Assembly (NCBI RefSeq): GCF_058153355.1
Contig: NZ_CM177019.1
Length of the DNA stretch: 64,000 nt
Strand: one strand, 5' to 3'
Part shown: positions 1,630 through 17,249 of the stretch, one piece after another
Position numbering within the stretch: the first letter of the stretch is position 1
How the letters are laid out: every line of letters starts with the position of its first letter
Notes under the pieces: generated by a model
The model's input: the letters and a program-made list of their open reading frames with translations, nothing else
Told to the model about the DNA's origin: nothing
Database searches by the model: none
Translations under genes and position numbers: made by a program

Positions 1630-2370
1630 ATGCTGCAAAATATTCGAATTGTGCTGGTGGAGACGTCACACACCGGTAATATGGGTTCTGTTGCCCGTGC
1701 CATGAAAACAATGGGCTTAACCAATCTGTGGCTGGTTAATCCACTAGTGAAACCTGACTCCCAGGCGATTGCTCTGGCAGCAGGGGCCAGCGATGTGATT
1801 GGTAATGCTCACATTGTCGATACACTCGACGAAGCGTTAGCCGGTTGTAGCCTGGTGGTTGGCACCAGTGCACGCTCGCGCACGCTGCCGTGGCCGATGC
1901 TCGACCCGCGCGAATGCGGTTTGAAAAGCGTCGCTGAAGCGGCAAATACGCCGGTGGCACTGGTTTTTGGTCGTGAGCGTGTCGGCTTGACCAATGAAGA
2001 GTTGCAAAAGTGCCATTATCATGTCGCCATTGCCGCTAACCCGGAATACAGTTCGCTTAACCTGGCGATGGCTGTTCAGGTTATTGCCTATGAAGTGCGC
2101 ATGGCCTGGCTGGCGACTCAGGAGAACAGCGAGCAGGTTGAACATGACGAGACGCCGTATCCGCTGGTCGATGATCTGGAACGTTTTTACGGTCATCTTG
2201 AACAAACGCTGCTGGCAACCGGCTTTATCCGTGAAAACCATCCGGGGCAGGTGATGAATAAGCTGCGTCGTCTGTTTACCCGTGCGCGCCCGGAAAGCCA
2301 GGAGTTGAATATCCTGCGCGGGATTCTGGCTTCTATTGAGCAGCAGAATAAAGGTAACAAGGCCGAATAA
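1630..2370 (+). CDS. trmJ: tRNA (cytidine/uridine-2'-O)-methyltransferase TrmJ (SpoU family)
   Basis: 246-aa ORF, SpoU/TrmH-like sequence; divergent from suhB as in K-12. Confidence 0.9.
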
Positions 2371-2377
2371 CCGAGGT

Positions 2378-2450
2378 TGCCTGATACGGCGCTTAACGCG
2401 TCTTGTCAGGCCTACATTGTACTGAACCCCTGGTCGGATAAAGTGTTTAC
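2378..2450. repeat. REP / BIME-like palindromic units
   Basis: gcctgatacggcgcttaacgcgtcttgtcaggcctac followed by a degenerate second unit (cggataaagtgtttacgccgcacccgaca); typical enterobacterial REP shape, located 3' of trmJ. Confidence 0.5.
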
Positions 2451-8541: not shown

Positions 8542-9825
8542 ATGACAGAAGCGATGAAGATTACCCACTCGACCCAACCTGCCGACGCGCGCTGGGGAGA
8601 AAAAGCGACTTACAGCATTAATAATGATGGTATTACCCTGCATTTGAACGGGGCAGACGATCTGGGGCTGATCCAGCGTGCGGCGCGCAAGATTGACGGT
8701 CTGGGTATCAAGCATGTTCAGCTAAGCGGTGAAGGCTGGGATGCGGATCGTTGCTGGGCATTCTGGCAAGGTTACAAAGCCCCGAAAGGCACGCGTAAAG
8801 TGGAGTGGCCGGATCTGGACGATGCCCAGCGTCAGGAACTGGATAACCGCCTGATGATCATCGACTGGGTGCGTGACACCATCAACGCACCAGCAGAAGA
8901 ACTGGGGCCATCGCAACTGGCACAGCGTGCTGTTGATCTGATCAGCAACGTCGCAGGCGATCGTGTGACTTACCGGATCACCAAAGGTGAAGATCTTCGT
9001 GATCAAGGTTATATGGGGCTGCACACTGTCGGGCGTGGTTCAGAACGTTCCCCGGTATTGCTGGCGCTGGATTACAACCCAACTGGCGATAAAGAAGCGC
9101 CGGTGTACGCGTGCCTGGTAGGTAAAGGCATCACCTTTGATTCCGGCGGCTACAGCATCAAACAGACCGCGTTTATGGACTCAATGAAGTCTGACATGGG
9201 CGGTGCGGCAACGGTTACCGGGGCGCTGGCATTTGCCATTACGCGCGGTCTGAACAAGCGTGTGAAGCTGTTCCTCTGCTGTGCGGATAACCTGATTAGC
9301 GGCAACGCGTTCAAACTGGGGGATATCATTACCTATCGCAACGGTAAAAAAGTCGAAGTCATGAACACCGATGCGGAAGGGCGTCTGGTTCTGGCAGATG
9401 GCCTGATTGACGCCAGTGCGCAGAAACCGGAACTGATTATCGATGCCGCGACACTCACCGGTGCGGCGAAAACCGCGCTGGGTAATGATTATCACGCGCT
9501 GTTCAGTTTTGACGATGCATTGGCCGGTCGCCTACTGGAGAGTGCCGCCCAGGAGAACGAACCGTTCTGGCGTCTGCCGCTGGCGGAGTTCCACCGTAGC
9601 CAGCTGCCATCTAACTTTGCGGAACTGAACAATACCGGAAGCGCGGCGTATCCGGCGGGTGCAAGTACGGCGGCGGGCTTCCTGTCGCACTTTGTTGAGA
9701 ACTATAAACAAGGTTGGCTGCATATCGACTGTTCGGCGACTTACCGTAAAGCACCGGTTGAACAGTGGTCTGCGGGTGCGACCGGGCTGGGTGTGCGCAC
9801 GATTGCTAATCTGTTAACGGCGTAA
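8542..9825 (+). CDS. pepB: peptidase B (M17 leucyl aminopeptidase family) PepB
   Basis: Conserved start [10 protein letters not shown] at 8542 (427 aa); M17 motif NTDAEGRL present. Confidence 0.9.
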
Positions 9826-9833
9826 ACTAATAT

Positions 9834-9935
<102 letters not shown>

Positions 9936-9967
9936 GTGCCCCGAACGTTGAATGAATTGTGGTTCTT

Positions 9968-10744
9968 ATGTCCGAAACAAAAAACGAACTTGAAGACCTG
10001 CTGGAAAAAGCAGCAACCGAACCGGCGCACCGCCCGGCCTTTTTCCGTACTCTACTGGAATCCACTGTCTGGGTACCAGGTACGGCGGCGCAGGGCGAGG
10101 CAGTGGCTGAAGATAGCGCGCTTGATTTACAGCACTGGGAAAAAGAAGACGGTACTAGCGTCATTCCTTTTTTCACCTCGTTAGAAGCACTGCAACAGGC
10201 GGTCGACGGCGAACAGGCGTTTGTCGTAATGCCCGTTCGCACACTGTTTGAGATGACCCTTGGCGAAACGCTCTTCCTTAATGCCAAATTGCCAACCGGT
10301 AAAGAGTTTATGCCGCGTGAAATCAGTTTGTTGATTGGTGAAGAAGGAAATCCGCTGAGCAGTCAGGAAGTACTGGAAGGCGGTGAATCGCTGATATTAT
10401 CGGAAGTCGCAGAGCCGCCAGCACAAATGATTGATTCACTTACCACCTTATTTAAAACCATTAAGCCGGTGAAGCGTGCTTTTATTTGTTCAATTAAAGA
10501 GAACGAAGAGGCACAGCCTAATTTACTTATTGGCATTGAAGCCGATGGCGATATCGAAGAAATTATTCAGGCGGCGGGAAGTGTAGCGACCGATACATTA
10601 CCTGGTGATGAACCAATAGATATTTGCCAGGTGAAAAAAGGGGAAAAAGGAATTAGCCACTTTATTACCGAACATATTGCGCCATTCTATGAACGTCGCT
10701 GGGGTGGATTCCTGCGTGATTTTAAACAGAATCGAATAATTTAA
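9968..10744 (+). CDS. sseB: SseB (enhanced serine sensitivity protein B)
   Basis: ATG at 9968 gives 258 aa MSETKNELEDLL...; matches remembered SseB N-terminus and K-12 synteny. Confidence 0.8.
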   Translation: MSETKNELEDLLEKAATEPAHRPAFFRTLLESTVWVPGTAAQGEAVAEDSALDLQHWEKEDGTSVIPFFTSLEALQQAVDGEQAFVVMPVRTLFEMTLGETLFLNAKLPTGKEFMPREISLLIGEEGNPLSSQEVLEGGESLILSEVAEPPAQMIDSLTTLFKTIKPVKRAFICSIKENEEAQPNLLIGIEADGDIEEIIQAAGSVATDTLPGDEPIDICQVKKGEKGISHFITEHIAPFYERRWGGFLRDFKQNRII

Positions 10745-10779
10745 AATATGCCGCCCCAAAGGGCGGCATTCGGGCTTAC

Positions 10780-11190
10780 TTGCTGTTCTGAAGGTTGTTA
10801 ACCATCAGTAAATTGTTGCCGGAGGGACTCCGGTTATTATTTACTTCGGAAAACAGCGCACCAGAAACAATAAGTACGATACAGAAGTACCGTATCTTCA
10901 TTGTGCGGTCCATGCGAAGACCGCATCACGACAGCACCACTGGCGATATTGCCGCGATAGCAAGCGCTGAGACGCGCTTGCCCTAACGGTCGCGGAACAT
11001 CCTTTCCTTAAGCCAGCGCCCGCTTGCGAGACGGCGGAAAGGGCCACAGTGGATAATACACTAACAGAACAATAATAACTCTCTTTTGCTTGACAGAAAG
11101 AGAGTTACTGGCGAGTATTGTCTTCGCTGAGACGCGCTTGCATTACTACGGTAATACAACCTGCTGGAAAGGCCGCGAACCAGACCAGCA
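10780..11190. ncRNA. candidate ryfA-family small-RNA locus (strand and ends unresolved)
   Basis: ~490-nt non-coding spacer between sseB and sseA with several strong stem-loops (e.g. 11-bp stem at 11076..11107) and an exact 17-nt repeat (10965..10981 and 11125..11141). In K-12 an sRNA (ryfA) is, to my recollection, annotated between sseA and sseB. Confidence 0.3.
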
Positions 11191-11222
11191 ATAAAAAACC
11201 GCCAAATTCGGCGGTTTTTTAT
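11191..11222. terminator. bidirectional rho-independent terminator
   Basis: aaaaaaccgccaaattcggcggtttttt: GC stem flanked by an A-run and a T-run, immediately 3' of sseA (minus strand). Confidence 0.7.
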
Positions 11223-11236
11223 TGCCTGTAAAAAGC

Positions 11237-12082
11237 TTATTTCTCTGGCTCAACCGGTAAATCGGCCCGTGCGCCCCATTCACTCCATGCGCCGTCGTAT
11301 AGTTTCACGTTTGGCACATCCAGCGTCGCGAGTGCTAACAAAACCACGGCTGCCGTTACACCAGAACCGCAACTGACGATAATTGGTTTGTCGTAGCTGA
11401 CACCGCGACCAAAAAATATCGCATCCAGTTCATCGGTCGTTTTTAGTTCGCCTTCTCGTACTAGTTCTGTTCACGGAACGTTCAACGCGCCGGGAATGTG
11501 CCCGCGACGTAAACCTGGGCGAGGTTCATCAACTTCTGCATTAAAACGTGCAGCCGGGCGGGCATCAATAATTTGCGCCGTATTTTCATGGCTTGCCAAT
11601 AACACATCGGTTACTTTCACCACAGCCTCAGGATTAAACGCAGCGTTAAACTCACCTTCTGGCAGCGCTACTGCACCTTCTTCTAATAGCAGATCATCAC
11701 GCTGCCAGCCTGCAAGTCCACCACCCAGAATCGACACTTTCTCTACACCAAAGGTGCGCAGCATCCACCATGCGCGTGGGGCTGAGAAAAGATTACCTTC
11801 GTCATAGACAATCAGGTGCTTATCCTGGTTAACGCCTAACTCACGCATTGCAACGGCGAACGTTTCCGGGCGCGGCAGCATGTGCGGAAGCGGGGAATTG
11901 TGATCAGAAAGCGTTTCGATATCGAAAAACACTGCGCCGGGAATATGTCCATTCAGATACTCCTGGGCAACGTTACGATCTTCCTGTCCAGGCGGTGCCA
12001 TGCGGGCATCGATAATCTGAATTTCCGGGTCATCAATATGTTCGGCGAGCCAGTCGGCTCCTACAAACCATGTCGTGGACAT
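11237..12082 (-). pseudogene. sseA: 3-mercaptopyruvate sulfurtransferase SseA, interrupted by an in-frame TGA
   Basis: ORF stops at TGA (complement of 11471..11473) after ...HIPGALNVP. The same frame continues without further stops for 77 codons (TELVREGELKTTDELDAIFFGRGVSYDKPIIVSCGSGVTAAVVLLALATLDVPNVKLYDGAWSEWGARADLPVEPEK*), including the rhodanese active-site CGSGVT. Confidence 0.8.
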
Positions 12083-12287
12083 AGGCATCTCCATTTTTGC
12101 CGGGTTAGGCTAAATTGTCGGATGTTTAGTGAAAAGCGACAAGCAAAAGAGGCTGATTTGGCTGTCTGAGCCACAATTCTCACTAAAATTCGGATTCCAT
12201 GGGCGCGATACTGAATTACATAACGTAAATTCTCACGCATAATAATTATTCGACGTTGCTAACGGGCCATTGTGGCAGGGATGAAAA

Positions 12288-15200
12288 ATGAAAAAGTTAC
12301 GCGTAGCCGCCTGCATGCTAATGCTGGCGCTGGCAGGGTGCGACAACAACGATAACGCGCCAACAGCGGTGAAAAAAGATGTACCTTCTGAAGTTACTAA
12401 AGCGGCATCTTCAAAAAATGCGAGTTCAGCAAAACTCTCTGCACCGGAGCGACAAAAACTGGCACAACAGAGTGCCGGTAAGGCGCTGACATTGCTGGAT
12501 CTCTCTGAAGTCCAACTCGATGGCGCAGCCACGCTGGTGCTGACCTTCTCTATCCCTCTCGACCCGGATCAGGATTTCTCGCGCGTTATTCACGTCGTTG
12601 ATAAAAAAAGCGGCAAAGTGGATGGGGCCTGGGAGCTGTCAGATAATCTTAAAGAGCTGCGTTTACGCCACCTCGAGCCGAAACGTGATTTGATCGTTAC
12701 TATTGGCAAGGAGGTCAAGGCACTCAACAACGCAACCTTCAGTAAAGATTACGAAAAAACTATAACTACCCGCGATATCCAGCCCAGCGTCGGTTTTGCC
12801 AGCCGTGGTTCGCTGCTGCCTGGAAAAGTCATTGAAGGGCTGCCGGTAATGGCGCTCAATGTTAACAATGTCGATGTTAACTTCTTCCGTGTTAAGCCAG
12901 AATTTCTGCCAGCATTTATTAGCCAATGGGAATACCGAAATTCGCTGGCGAACTGGCAGTCAGACAAACTGCTGCAAATGGCGGATCTGGTTTATACCGG
13001 ACGTTTTGATCTCAATCCTGCGCGTAACACCCGTGAAAAATTATTGCTGCCGCTGGGTGATATCAAACCGCTTCAGCAGGCGGGTGTGTATCTGGCTGTG
13101 ATGAATCAGGCTGGACGTTACGATTACAGTAATCCCGCGACGCTGTTTACATTAAGTGATATCGGCGTATCGGCCCACCGTTATCACAATCGTCTGGATA
13201 TCTTTACCCAAAGCCTGGAAAACGGCGCGGCCCAGCAAGGAGTTGAAGTCTCATTATTAAATGAGAAAGGGCAGACTCTGACTCAGGCAACCAGTGATGC
13301 CCAGGGGCATGTGCAGCTGGAAAATGATAAAAACGCGGCATTACTGTTGGCGCGTAAAGACGGTCAGACAACGCTACTCGATTTAAAACTTCCGGCGCTG
13401 GACTTAGCAGAATTTAACATTGCTGGCGCGCCAGGCTATAACAAACAGTTTTTCATGTTTGGCCCGCGCGATCTTTATCGCCCGGGTGAAACAGTCATCC
13501 TTAATGGTTTATTGCGTGATGCAGACGGTAAAGCGTTGCCCGATCAACCCATCAAGCTGGACGTAATTAAACCCGACGGGCAGGTACTCAGGAGCGTCGT
13601 TAGTCAGCCGGAGAATGGCCTCTATCACTTTACCTGGCCACTCGATAGTAATGCGGCCACCGGCATGTGGCATATCCGAGCCAACACGGGCGATAACCAG
13701 TATCGGATGTGGGATTTCCACGTCGAAGATTTTATGCCAGAGCGCATGGCGCTGAATCTGACCGGTGAGAAAACCCCGCTAACGCCGAAAGATGAAGTGA
13801 AATTCTCCGTGGTGGGTTACTACCTGTACGGGGCGCCTGCTAATGGTAATACTTTGCAAGGGCAACTTTTCCTGCGCCCACTGCGTGAAGCTGTGTCAGC
13901 CTTACCTGGTTTCGAATTCGGCGATATAGCTGCTGAAAACCTTTCGCGCACGCTGGATGAAGTTCAGTTGACGCTGGATGATAAAGGGCGCGGCGAAGTT
14001 TCTACAGAAAGCCAGTGGAAGGAAACGCATTCCCCATTACAGGTTATTTTCCAGGGCAGTTTGCTGGAGTCTGGCGGTCGCCCGGTGACGCGCCGTGCTG
14101 AGCAGGCTATCTGGCCTGCCGATGCATTGCCGGGGATCCGTCCGCAATTCGCCTCGAAATCGGTTTACGATTATCGCACTGACAGTACGGTAAAACAGCC
14201 CATTGTTGATGAAGGCAGTAACGCCGCTTTTGACATCGTTTATAGCGATGCACAGGGCGTGAAAAAAGCTGTGTCTGGCTTACAAGTGCGCCTGATTCGC
14301 GAACGCCGCGATTACTACTGGAACTGGTCAGAAGATGAAGGCTGGCAGTCACAGTTTGATCAAAAAGATCTGATCGAAAATGAACAAACACTGGATCTTC
14401 AGGCTGATGAAACCGGTAAAGTCAGTTTCCCGGTAGAGTGGGGCGCTTATCGTCTGGAAGTCAAAGCGCCGAATGAAGCGGTCAGTAGTGTGCGTTTCTG
14501 GGCTGGCTATAGCTGGCAGGACAATAGCGACGGTAGCGGTGCTGTGCGACCAGACCGTGTCACGCTGAAACTGGATAAAGCCAGTTATCGCCCTGGTGAT
14601 ACCATTAAGTTGCACATTGCCGCGCCAACGGCGGGTAAAGGCTATGCGATGGTCGAGTCCAGTGAAGGGCCGCTGTGGTGGCAGGAGATTGATGTTCCAG
14701 CACAAGGGCTGGATCTGACGATTCCGGTCGATAAAACCTGGAATCGTCATGATCTTTATTTAAGTACGCTGGTGGTACGTCCTGGCGATAAATCCCGCTC
14801 CGCGACGCCAAAACGCGCAGTTGGCGTGTTGCATTTGCCGCTTGGCGATGAAAACCGTCGTCTCGATCTGGCGCTGGAAACTCCAGCGAAAATACGCCCC
14901 AATCAGCCATTAACCGTGAAAATTAAAGCCAGCAATAAAAATGGTGAGATGCCAAAACAGGTGAATGTGCTGGTGTCTGCGGTTGATAGCGGTGTGTTGA
15001 ATATTACTGATTATGTCACGCCAGATCCGTGGCAGGCATTCTTTGGTCAGAAACGCTATGGCGCAGATATTTACGATATTTACGGTCAGGTCATTGAAGG
15101 TCAGGGGCGTCTGGCAGCTCTGCGTTTTGGTGGCGATGGTGATGAACTGAAACGCGGTGGTAAACCGCCAGTAAATCACGTCAATATTGTTGCGCAACAG

Positions 15201-17249
15201 GCGCTACCGGTAACACTCAACGAACAGGGCGAAGGCACGGTTACATTGCCGATTGGTGATTTTAACGGTGAATTGCGCGTCATGGCACAAGCATGGACAG
15301 CAGATGATTTCGGTAGCAACGAAAGCAAAGTGGTTGTTGCCGCACCGGTGATAGCAGAACTGAACATGCCGCGCTTTATGGCCAGCGGTGACACCTCACG
15401 TCTGACGCTGGATATCACTAATCTTACCGATAAACCGCAAAAACTGAACGTTGCTCTGACCGCCAGTGGCTTGCTTGAACTGGTTAGCGATTCACCCGCA
15501 GCCGTTGAATTAGCGCCGGGCGTGCGAACCACGCTGTTTATCCCGGTGCGAGCATTGCCGGGTTATGGTGATGGTGAAATTCAGGCCACTATCAGCGGGT
15601 TAGCGTTACCGGGTGAAACCGTTGCCGATCAGCATAAGCAGTGGAAAATGGGTGTCCGTCCGGCATTTCCGGCACAAACCGTCAATTACGGTACGGCGTT
15701 GCAGCCTGGTGAGACATGGGCGATTCCAGCTGATGGATTGCAAAACTTCTCGCCTGTTACGCTGGAAGGGCAATTGTTGTTGAGCGGCAAACCACCGTTG
15801 AATATTGCACGTTATATCAAAGAGTTAAAAGCGTATCCGTACGGTTGTCTGGAGCAAACCGCCAGCGGCCTGTTCCCGTCACTTTACACCAACGCAGCCC
15901 AACTGCAGGCGTTGGGAATCAAAGGCGACAGTGATGAGAAGCGCCGTGCGGCAGTCGATATCGGCATTTCTCGTTTACTGCAAATGCAACGTGATAACGG
16001 TGGCTTTGCGCTGTGGGATAAAAACGGTGATGAAGAGTACTGGCTGACGGCTTACGTGATGGATTTCCTGGTCCGCGCAGGTGAGCAGGGTTACAGCGTG
16101 CCGACAGAAGCCATTAACCGGGGGAATGAGCGTCTACTGCGCTATTTACAAGATCCGGGCATGATGTCGATTCCGTATGCGGATAATCTCAAAGCCAGTA
16201 AATTCGCCGTACAGTCTTACGCTGCGCTGGTGCTGGCCCGTCAGCAAAAGGCACCGCTGGGTGCGCTGCGTGAAATCTGGGAGCATCGTGCCGATGCTGC
16301 GTCTGGATTACCGCTGCTGCAACTTGGCGTTGCGCTGAAAACCATGGGCGATGCAACGCGTGGTGAAGAAGCGATTGTGCTGGCGCTGAAAACGCCGCGC
16401 AATAGTGATGAGCGGATATGGCTGGGTGATTACGGTAGTCCACTGCGCGACAACGCATTGATGCTCTCCTTGCTGGAAGAGAACAAATTGCTACCCGATG
16501 AGCAGTACCCTCTGCTGAACACACTTTCGCAGCAGGCGTTCGGTGAACGCTGGTTATCAACTCAGGAAAGTAACGCGCTGTTCCTGGCTGCCCGTACGAT
16601 TCAGGATTTACCGGGCAAATGGCAGGCGCAAACGTCTTTCTCTGCTGAGCTGCTGACAGGTGAGAAAGCGCAAACCAGCAATCTGAATAGCGATCAACTT
16701 GCCACCTTACAGGTGACCAACAGTGGCGATCAGCCGTTATGGCTGCGTGTGGATGCCAGCGGATATCCGCAATCCGCCCCTTTACCGGCGAGCAATGTGC
16801 TGCAAATCGAGCGCCATATTCTTGGCACTGACGGTAAGAGCAAATCGCTGGATTCGTTACGTAGCGGCGATCTGGTACTGGTCTGGTTGCAGGTCAAAGC
16901 CAGTAACAGCGTGCCGGATGCTTTGGTCGTTGATTTACTGCCTGCGGGCCTGGAACTGGAAAACCAGAACCTGGCTAACGGCAGCGCCAGCCTGGAGCAA
17001 AGTGGTAGCGAAGTGCAAAACCTACTCAGTCAAATGCAACAAGCGAACATTAAGCATATTGAGTTTCGTGACGATCGCTTTGTGGCGGCGGTTGCCGTTG
17101 ATGAATATCAACCAGTCACGCTGGTGTATCTGGCGCGGGCGGTAACGCCGGGAACATACAATGTTCCGCAACCAATGGTGGAATCGATGTATGTTCCCCA
17201 CTGGCGGGCGACTGGCGCGGCTGAAGATCTGTTGATTGTCAGACCGTAA
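12288..17249 (+). CDS. yfhM: alpha-2-macroglobulin family lipoprotein YfhM (ECAM)
   Basis: 1653-aa ORF with lipobox (LALAGC) and thioester motif CLEQ (GCLEQTAS); intact. Confidence 0.9.
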   Translation: MKKLRVAACMLMLALAGCDNNDNAPTAVKKDVPSEVTKAASSKNASSAKLSAPERQKLAQQSAGKALTLLDLSEVQLDGAATLVLTFSIPLDPDQDFSRVIHVVDKKSGKVDGAWELSDNLKELRLRHLEPKRDLIVTIGKEVKALNNATFSKDYEKTITTRDIQPSVGFASRGSLLPGKVIEGLPVMALNVNNVDVNFFRVKPEFLPAFISQWEYRNSLANWQSDKLLQMADLVYTGRFDLNPARNTREKLLLPLGDIKPLQQAGVYLAVMNQAGRYDYSNPATLFTLSDIGVSAHRYHNRLDIFTQSLENGAAQQGVEVSLLNEKGQTLTQATSDAQGHVQLENDKNAALLLARKDGQTTLLDLKLPALDLAEFNIAGAPGYNKQFFMFGPRDLYRPGETVILNGLLRDADGKALPDQPIKLDVIKPDGQVLRSVVSQPENGLYHFTWPLDSNAATGMWHIRANTGDNQYRMWDFHVEDFMPERMALNLTGEKTPLTPKDEVKFSVVGYYLYGAPANGNTLQGQLFLRPLREAVSALPGFEFGDIAAENLSRTLDEVQLTLDDKGRGEVSTESQWKETHSPLQVIFQGSLLESGGRPVTRRAEQAIWPADALPGIRPQFASKSVYDYRTDSTVKQPIVDEGSNAAFDIVYSDAQGVKKAVSGLQVRLIRERRDYYWNWSEDEGWQSQFDQKDLIENEQTLDLQADETGKVSFPVEWGAYRLEVKAPNEAVSSVRFWAGYSWQDNSDGSGAVRPDRVTLKLDKASYRPGDTIKLHIAAPTAGKGYAMVESSEGPLWWQEIDVPAQGLDLTIPVDKTWNRHDLYLSTLVVRPGDKSRSATPKRAVGVLHLPLGDENRRLDLALETPAKIRPNQPLTVKIKASNKNGEMPKQVNVLVSAVDSGVLNITDYVTPDPWQAFFGQKRYGADIYDIYGQVIEGQGRLAALRFGGDGDELKRGGKPPVNHVNIVAQQALPVTLNEQGEGTVTLPIGDFNGELRVMAQAWTADDFGSNESKVVVAAPVIAELNMPRFMASGDTSRLTLDITNLTDKPQKLNVALTASGLLELVSDSPAAVELAPGVRTTLFIPVRALPGYGDGEIQATISGLALPGETVADQHKQWKMGVRPAFPAQTVNYGTALQPGETWAIPADGLQNFSPVTLEGQLLLSGKPPLNIARYIKELKAYPYGCLEQTASGLFPSLYTNAAQLQALGIKGDSDEKRRAAVDIGISRLLQMQRDNGGFALWDKNGDEEYWLTAYVMDFLVRAGEQGYSVPTEAINRGNERLLRYLQDPGMMSIPYADNLKASKFAVQSYAALVLARQQKAPLGALREIWEHRADAASGLPLLQLGVALKTMGDATRGEEAIVLALKTPRNSDERIWLGDYGSPLRDNALMLSLLEENKLLPDEQYPLLNTLSQQAFGERWLSTQESNALFLAARTIQDLPGKWQAQTSFSAELLTGEKAQTSNLNSDQLATLQVTNSGDQPLWLRVDASGYPQSAPLPASNVLQIERHILGTDGKSKSLDSLRSGDLVLVWLQVKASNSVPDALVVDLLPAGLELENQNLANGSASLEQSGSEVQNLLSQMQQANIKHIEFRDDRFVAAVAVDEYQPVTLVYLARAVTPGTYNVPQPMVESMYVPHWRATGAAEDLLIVRP

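Follow-up and report, generated by a model that had tools for sequence, protein, structure and literature searches.

The RNA gene ryfA has been renamed timP, and in Salmonella it encodes a toxic inner-membrane protein of 38 amino acids that is repressed by an antisense small RNA (sRNA), TimR (Andresen et al. 2020, PMC7667032). Every enterobacterial timP examined is reported to have such a partner, followed by a terminator, and compensatory mutagenesis in Salmonella proves the pairing of the two RNAs at the site homologous to the one considered below (PMC7667032). The timP mRNA folds into four stem-loops (SL1 to SL4), with the TimR site in SL2 and the Shine–Dalgarno (SD) sequence trapped in SL4; translation requires a 7-bp pseudoknot between SL1 and SL3, which TimR disrupts (Eleftheraki and Holmqvist 2024, PMC11228461), and pairing between two further segments, site 2 and site 4, opens SL4 in Salmonella (Eleftheraki et al. 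2026, PMC13000454). The subject here is the spacer between sseB and sseA in a 64,000-nucleotide stretch of contig NZ_CM177019.1 (NCBI RefSeq assembly GCF_058153355.1), hereafter the window. With a probability of roughly 0.87, this spacer is a single-copy timP/timR (ryfA/ryfB) type I toxin–antitoxin module, a system that is already described, mechanistically dissected and annotated in RefSeq (Andresen 2020; Eleftheraki 2024, 2026; Fris 2017).

Related loci have also been followed in Shigella and Escherichia. In Shigella dysenteriae, ryfA1 and ryfA2 transcripts and RyfB transcripts of ~100 nt were detected by RNA-seq and quantitative reverse-transcription PCR (Fris et al. 2017, PMC5333039), and RyfB1 lowers RyfA1 specifically (PMC5333039). 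TimR has been seen by Northern blot in uropathogenic Escherichia coli (UPEC) CFT073 and avian pathogenic E. coli (APEC) CH138 (PMC13188913). Toxicity on overexpression and location in the inner membrane are established for Salmonella TimP only (PMC7667032), and Salmonella timP is toxic when in the E. coli chromosome (PMC13000454).

The spacer in the window covers 10745..11236, between the sseB stop codon, which ends at 10744, and the sseA stop codon on the minus strand (11237..11239). A first-pass annotation, made from the letters alone, had singled it out with a length of 490 nt, where the actual length is 492 nt, and had proposed a ryfA-type sRNA locus. The proposal is borne out by an Rfam scan of 9500..12500, in which RF00126 (ryfA RNA; gathering score 80 bits) matches the minus strand at 10743..11047 along its whole length (model positions 1–296 of 296) with 309.9 bits and E = 1.3e-86. 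The predicted fold of this RNA has a minimum free energy (MFE) of -131.5 kcal/mol (z = -6.45). Its terminator lies 3 nt past the sseB stop codon, and the minus-strand sequence after the core stem is ATTTTAAATT; the hairpin previously placed at 10747..10775 as a possible end of a minus-strand transcript is thus terminator-like and has the U-rich tail, but those coordinates are only roughly right, the stem being 10748..10756/10761..10769. Megablast finds the spacer in 5,425 of 5,426 complete E. coli genomes, and the coding sequence (CDS) annotated in RefSeq under the match is ‘timP: small toxic inner membrane protein TimP’. The exact combination of allele segments in the window occurs in none of these 5,426 genomes, the best spacer identity being 96.7%.

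The 41-codon open reading frame (ORF) suggested earlier on the minus strand has exactly the start, stop and translation then given (Table 1), and its AUG lies at +147 of the RNA. Its identification as the counterpart of Salmonella TimP was well founded, since it agrees codon for codon with the E. coli timP of RefSeq: 10776..10901 is, base for base, the position of the CDS that RefSeq (PGAP) calls timP in E. coli H15, EV36 and 2013C-4282. The protein passes the NCBIfam profile NF040796 (toxic_TimP; curated cut-off 45 bits) with 78.2 bits and E = 3.8e-22, residues 1–39 aligning with positions 1–39 of 40, and the exact 41-residue sequence is already in NCBI, named TimP, on 342 contigs. The mini-ORF thus already has an annotation, as timP. 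The hydrophobic N-terminus noted from the letters is also real, with a mean Kyte–Doolittle value of +2.26 for residues 5–18, against -1.13 for residues 19–41 in the polar C-terminal half. Loss of the ORF elsewhere in Escherichia and Shigella had been named as the finding that would speak against it; the frame is open in all 19 loci compared, which come from six genera (Escherichia, Citrobacter, Superficieibacter, Yersinia, Rahnella and Erwinia), with 38–42 codons and only whole-codon, in-frame indels. Among these loci the N-terminal MK(I)RYxCIVLxVSGAL is kept, and the C-terminal half is variable and polar. An in-frame AUG at 10911..10913 (minus strand), four codons upstream, would give a 45-residue product (MDRTMKIR...), and this is the form that Bessaiah et al. 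2021 (PMC8205139) worked with for UPEC CFT073. It was rejected as the conserved start on three grounds: Rahnella and Erwinia have AAG there, which leaves the downstream AUG as the one that is conserved; the upstream codon overlaps the SD; and in Salmonella the start has been mapped to the downstream AUG.

What ties this coding RNA to an antitoxin is an exact 17-mer, CGCTGAGACGCGCTTGC, which the first-pass annotation had reported at 10965..10981 and 11125..11141 without explaining it. The repeat is there, and it is the TimR seed together with its SL2 target on the timP mRNA: the two RNAs come from opposite strands, which turns a direct DNA repeat into complementarity between them. No third copy occurs in the 64-kb window with up to two mismatches allowed, and none of 100 dinucleotide shuffles contained the 17-mer twice. 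The longest substring that the 5' untranslated region (5'UTR) of timP shares with the 500 nt upstream is likewise 17 nt, compared with a maximum of 13 in 100 shuffles. The upstream copy lies on the opposite strand 78–94 nt before the predicted timP start, and the target lies ~65 nt upstream of the timP start codon. Beyond the 17 exact pairs, the pairing extends to 21 nt if a single mismatch and a single G·U pair are included (timP +63, at 10985, to +83, against upstream positions -98..-78). Computed for SL2 and the TimR 5' region, the duplex reaches -47.1 kcal/mol, against -23.3 ± 4.0 kcal/mol and a minimum of -36.4 for 500 shuffled seeds. An RNAduplex comparison of the full 150-nt and 120-nt RNAs was discarded, as it returned implausible genome-length duplexes, with shuffled controls down to -89 kcal/mol.

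The same pairing recurs across genera with different sequences. Eighteen loci were compared, namely the window, two further E. coli loci and 15 enterobacterial loci from a pattern search of contigs, with ryfA located by Rfam. The search pattern, GCGGTCNNNGCANNGACCGCAC, is a GC-rich hairpin and therefore too unspecific on its own; among the at least 120 loci listed for it there were 15 enterobacterial timP loci, none of them from Salmonella, and these 15 were used and the rest ignored. At 15 of the 18 loci, representing six genera, the best ungapped duplex is 16–23 bp long and joins timP +63..+87 to upstream positions -64..-99. The K-12-like locus has its duplex partner at -418..-399, displaced by an insertion of ~320 nt. 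The duplex sequences are specific to lineages (GCAAGCGCGUCUCAGCG, GCAGGUGUUUCACAGCG, GCAGACACCCCACAG, CAGGCACACCUCAGUG, GCACACUCUCGUGCU, AAGCACGACCUCGUGC and GCGCAGACUAGCG), and in a matrix of all combinations, with identical alleles merged, 13 of 14 rows have their cognate TimR as the best predicted partner. Convincing complementarity of the TimR type was not seen at the usual upstream position in three of the 18 loci, those of C. amalonaticus, Y. aleksiciae and Y. similis, where the 5'UTRs are rearranged. The ryfA/timP genes of these three begin differently, with a shorter 5' end in which SL1 cannot be recognised, and their TimP ORF and SL4 are intact; in Y. similis, Ysr224 lies just upstream of timP on the same strand.

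The upstream copy of the 17-mer opens a conserved unit that can be recognised as timR, so the antisense repressor suspected from the Salmonella parallel has its gene next door, complete with 17-nt pairing and a conserved promoter, core and terminator. In an alignment of 13 loci from six genera, running from the timP start to beyond the terminator, CTTGAC (11089..11094) is invariant, the -35 hexamer TTGACA being at 11090..11095, and the -10 element is kept as nAnTAT. Past the -10 element come, in order, the variable seed, a conserved GCTTGC(G/A)TT(A/G)C, the near-invariant GCTGGAAAGGCCGC-N-AACC-N-GACCAGC and an intrinsic terminator. By this order from promoter to terminator, the TimR 5' end falls at ~11125, on the very first base of the 17-mer, and the 3' end at ~11223. 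The predicted length of ~99 nt agrees with the ~100-nt RyfB transcripts of S. dysenteriae (PMC5333039), and the predicted fold has an MFE of -34.6 kcal/mol (z = -4.2). The terminator has both an A-run and a T-run and can therefore also serve the convergent sseA. The timP and timR promoters are predicted from conservation across genera; a consensus scan asking for at least four of six matches per hexamer found neither, the timR -10 element matching at three of six positions. No Rfam family reaches its gathering score over timR in the scan of 9500..12500. Matches to AgrB, rimP-leader, IS128, RNAI and Leu-leader over 11139..11265 were set aside as sub-threshold and driven by the terminator: RF02891 (AgrB) scores 29.8 bits (E = 0.026; gathering score 40), mostly from the terminator hairpin, and RF00125 (IS128) scores 25.9 and 25.4 bits (gathering score 80) over the terminator at 11184..11262.

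The translation-control architecture published for timP can be mapped onto the window RNA element by element. With pairs counted in an alignment of 16 sequences, 96.7% of cells in the 5'UTR structure are paired, against 38–50% when the partners are slid by 1–3 columns. The SL1–SL3 pseudoknot has 7 bp. None of the 16 sequences disrupts its pairing, and at three of the seven pairs both partners vary (CG/UA, UA/CG and CG/UA/UG). SL4 is invariant and 100% paired. The only SD-like element of timP, a GGA at 10909..10911 (+137..+139), 7 nt before the AUG, lies inside its 7-bp stem in both the MFE and the centroid fold. That location explains the lack of a strong SD in front of the mini-ORF, which had been remarked on correctly and is a known property of timPR. 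Site 2 (+57..+62) and site 4 (+124..+129) can pair in all 16 sequences, at nearly invariant positions and with no covariation. SL2 corresponds to the hairpin gcaagcgc/gcgcttgc of the first-pass annotation, which is real, with 8 bp and a 6-nt loop, but lies at 10960..10981 rather than 10961..10982. The presence and position of each RNA element and of the ORF, and their conservation or covariation, are thus matters of direct observation in this analysis (Table 1).

Table 1. Features of the timP/timR locus in the window; RNA positions (+) are counted from the predicted timP start
Feature	Coordinates	Strand	Remarks
timP mRNA (historically ryfA RNA), ~305 nt, predicted transcription start site (TSS) to terminator	10743..11047	-	RF00126 full-length match
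Predicted timP -10 hexamer TATTAT	11053..11058	-	6 nt upstream of Rfam start; TAnnnT kept in 13/13 aligned loci
SL1 (+6..+47), with pseudoknot ‘site 1’ CGCUGGC at 11012..11018 (+30..+36)	11001..11042	-	
‘Site 2’ GACCGU (+57..+62), complementary to site 4	10986..10991	-	function from PMC13000454
SL2 (+67..+88), 8-bp stem and 6-nt loop; TimR-binding site and 5-nt ‘variable region’ CGCGU	10960..10981	-	
TimR target on timP mRNA, 17-mer copy 1 (+67..+83), SL2 5' arm and loop	10965..10981	-	
SL3 (+90..+123), with pseudoknot ‘site 3’ GCCAGUG at 10938..10944 (+104..+110)	10925..10958	-	
SL4 (+124..+143), 7-bp stem sequestering SD; 5' flank GCGGUC 10919..10924 is ‘site 4’	10905..10924	-	fold; role from PMC11228461, PMC13000454
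timP CDS, 41 codons and stop, MKIRYFCIVLIVSGALFSEVNNNRSPSGNNLLMVNNLQNSK	10776..10901	-	ATG 10899..10901, stop 10776..10778
Intrinsic terminator of timP, then U-rich tail	10746..10773	-	core stem 10748-56/10761-69; 3' hairpin of Rfam model
11-bp perfect inverted repeat TAACTCTCTTT-N10-AAAGAGAGTTA	11076..11107		arms 11076..11086/11097..11107, 10-nt loop
Predicted timR promoter: -35 cTTGACA 11089..11095, 17-nt spacer, -10 GAGTAT 11113..11118	11089..11118	+	
timR (= ryfB, STnc2070 homologue), antitoxin sRNA, ~99 nt	11125..11223	+	5' end predicted within ~2 nt
TimR seed, 17-mer copy 2, complementary to SL2 of timP mRNA	11125..11141	+	
Bidirectional intrinsic terminator, timR (+)/sseA (-)	11188..11225		19-nt arms 11188..11206/11207..11225, A-run and T-run

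Homology with the Salmonella system suggests how the module may work. timP would be read from the minus strand, starting at ~11047 and ending with the terminator at ~10746, and would encode the hydrophobic 41-residue TimP, and timR (RyfB) would be transcribed divergently on the plus strand from ~11125 to ~11223. The timP SD would be locked in SL4, and translation would need both the SL1–SL3 pseudoknot (site 1 with site 3) and the pairing of site 2 with site 4 that opens SL4. TimR bound to SL2 would destabilise the active fold and block translation, leaving TimP to be made only on depletion of TimR. Transcription, toxicity, membrane targeting and repression are here carried over from the literature on other strains, and are to be expected of the window allele by analogy.

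Several points weigh against reading the locus as a toxin–antitoxin module. A rival reading is that in Escherichia it is mainly a regulatory RNA pair with a physiologically silent TimP ORF. RyfA would then be a trans-acting or ProQ-bound sRNA concerned with stress resistance, fimbriae and virulence, and TimR its RNA partner or sponge; RyfA reportedly does bind ProQ, as the title of one paper (PMC10664665) has it. Native TimP protein has so far not been demonstrated in Escherichia or Shigella, and no protein product was obtained from ryfA1, the ORF tested there being a differently predicted one of ~30 amino acids (Fris 2017, PMC5333039). In UPEC, ryfA alleles with a disrupted ORF still complemented the phenotypes of ΔryfA (PMC8205139). 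In APEC, ΔryfA is attenuated, whereas deletion of timR has little effect and both ΔtimR and the ΔryfA-timR double mutant are near wild type (PMC13188913). The UPEC and APEC results favour the regulatory pair, as does the lowering of ompC mRNA on overproduction of RyfA1 in S. dysenteriae (PMC5333039). For the window strain itself, the start sites of timP and timR are predictions from promoter conservation only; the pairing of site 2 with site 4 barely varies, so that the alignment neither supports nor tests it; and RNA structure overlaps the timP ORF, so that nucleotide conservation alone is no proof of selection for coding. Against a silent ORF, however, the frame stays open across six genera with whole-codon indels and a preserved N-terminal half; the elements that control translation, SL4 and the pseudoknot, are invariant or covary, which would be hard to explain if translation were irrelevant; and the toxicity of Salmonella timP extends to a copy in the E. 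coli chromosome. A locus that is mainly regulatory RNA is on balance rather doubtful, and toxin–antitoxin function could coexist with it. A regulatory role, alone or beside the coding one, remains a live rival that leaves the identity of the locus unchanged.

Two narrower alternatives concern the repeats themselves. It is extremely improbable that a local duplication within the spacer simply left the 17-mer behind without any function: there are other short direct repeats nearby and segments of the spacer do duplicate in K-12-like genomes, but the two copies keep their positions and change together between lineages, a covariation that contradicts this account, copy 2 sits exactly at the start of the conserved promoter-to-terminator unit, and the compensatory mutagenesis in Salmonella demonstrates pairing at the homologous site. 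The 11-bp perfect stem at 11076..11107 had been counted among the signs of a spacer with more structure than a plain terminator region would have. It exists as an inverted repeat, with a folding energy of -9.2 kcal/mol as single-stranded DNA (z = -5.3), but taking it for an RNA feature is very probably mistaken. It lies in the divergent promoter region between the two predicted start sites, the loop holding the timR -35 element, the right arm falling in the timR spacer and the left arm abutting the timP -35 region; being upstream of both starts, it is part of neither RNA. Its perfection and strong fold statistics would suit a terminator or processing hairpin of some spacer transcript, yet this is very improbable given its place upstream of both predicted TSSs (timP ~11047, timR ~11125), the lack of a T-run after it, a loop that contains the invariant timR -35 hexamer, and arms that are missing from E. 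coli allele class 3 and from each of the other genera.

The palindrome is therefore best regarded as DNA. It is seen in E. coli allele classes 1 and 2; H15 has it with 12-bp arms, the K-12-like genome in each of its two promoter copies, and E. whittamii in imperfect form. It is absent from class 3 (2013C-4282, SCPM, E1V33) and from the Citrobacter, Superficieibacter, Yersinia, Erwinia and Rahnella loci compared. Of 5,426 E. coli genomes, 3,361 match the surrounding 51-nt segment with at least 95% identity. It is a real, lineage-restricted feature of the promoter region and not core to timPR, and it is the sole unexplained element of the spacer. It might serve some Escherichia regulator as an operator through which the ratio of timR to timP transcription is switched, and if so it would supply the condition under which TimP is made. 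Bearing on this are a repeat beyond chance, its retention in two of the three E. coli allele classes and its place outside both RNAs; against it, nothing positively supports a binding protein, and an operator is on present evidence improbable. Elsewhere in the window the half-site has three one-mismatch matches, which form no pattern.

The allele in the window belongs to a recognised series. Four versions of the variable region have been described in Escherichia and Shigella, TGTTT, CGCGT, CCCCC and CACCC, the last three being termed ‘ryfA1-like’ (PMC5333039). The window RNA reads GCAAG-CGCGU-CUCAGCG at +67..+83, and its variable region CGCGU places it in the ‘ryfA1-like’ class. CGCGU is the commonest E. 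coli allele, present in the window as a simple one-module arrangement. Among 5,426 complete E. coli genomes, 2,908 match the 46-nt SL2 segment with at least 95% identity and 4,540 have the TimR seed segment, about 1,600 more than have the window-type timP target.

The locus is also a mosaic. On both flanks the window equals 2013C-4282, on one side in sseB, the timP ORF, SL4 and SL3, and on the other from the start of the TimR core; the SL2 loop, SL1, both promoters and the TimR seed (~10970..11160) follow the H15-type allele, with about a quarter of positions differing from 2013C-4282. As the H15-type stretch spans both target and seed, the two were exchanged together in one recombination tract of ~190 bp. 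K-12-like genomes, exemplified by E. coli EV36 (1830..2430), have ~320 extra nt, in the order timP (UGUUU), a timR copy, an AT-rich stretch, a 17-nt remnant of the timP 5' end and a second timR. The timR copy adjoining timP has a seed identical to that of the window and is non-cognate for K-12 timP; the distal copy is cognate. Part of the K-12-like insert matches Rfam IS128, where the full element scores 261.3 bits, and the window is without this insert.

Some features of the neighbouring genes may be recorded. sseA (11237..12082, minus strand) has an in-frame TGA at 11471..11473, where E. coli 2013C-4282 has Trp204 (TGG), and this codon precedes the catalytic-Cys motif SCGSG; because of it, sseA is either a pseudogene in this genome or affected by a sequencing error. 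Only 18 of 5,426 complete E. coli genomes reach 99% identity with the yfhM allele (12288..17249), and 5,404 stand at 90–95%. Either the window derives from a lineage in the minority, or the alleles of yfhM fall into two deeply diverged classes. The pepB–sseB spacer contains a REP-like palindromic element at 9820..9864, with a sub-threshold Rfam match to naRNA4 (40.3 bits; gathering score 59.5).

Each structure that was flagged from the letters and belongs to the module now has a named timPR counterpart: the 17-mer as seed and target, the 8-bp hairpin as SL2, the terminal hairpin as the timP terminator and the weak SD as part of SL4. Covariation in the pairing of antitoxin with target, and in the pseudoknot, has been reproduced independently on 16–19 loci from six genera. 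The literature already recognises two questions, that of when native TimP is made and that of a possible second role of the RNA, as a regulator, in Escherichia.

One of the closest known systems is timP/timR of Salmonella enterica SL1344, which has been tested experimentally; the window allele is known from its sequence alone. The two share the sseB ... sseA neighbourhood, the divergent arrangement and the Rfam family; in both, the TimR 5' end pairs with SL2, over 17 exact nt in the window and 18 nt in Salmonella, and in both the SD is trapped in SL4, a 7-bp pseudoknot joins SL1 to SL3, site 2 is complementary to site 4 and the ORF starts at almost the same point (+147 and +145). They differ in that the window TimP has 41 residues rather than 38, with a different C-terminal half, in the sequences of seed and target, and in the extra gene STM2534 that Salmonella has between sseA and timP. 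The ryfA1/ryfB1 and ryfA2/ryfB2 modules of S. dysenteriae belong to the same RNA family and likewise have a divergent sRNA of ~100 nt and a complementarity of ~17 nt that overlaps the variable region, but they stand as two tandem modules where the window has one; the study that described them regarded RyfA1 as a regulatory RNA without coding function, and the putative ORF that it tested was another one (Fris 2017, PMC5333039). E. coli K-12 ryfA, annotated as timP in RefSeq, shares flanking genes, CDS annotation and 34 of 41 TimP residues with the window, and is unlike it in that K-12-like genomes have the variable region UGUUU. More broadly, the module resembles tisB/istR-1, shoB/ohsC, zorO/orzO and dinQ/agrB, in which a small hydrophobic toxin ORF also lies in a structured mRNA, the antitoxin sRNA also comes from an adjacent, non-overlapping divergent gene and a short complementarity (~17–20 nt) is also placed far upstream of the ribosome-binding site. 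Unlike these four pairs, timP mRNA is described in the literature as having no need of nucleolytic processing and as using a structural switch based on a pseudoknot; TimP in addition has a Sec-type signal-like N-terminus, and the sequence families differ.

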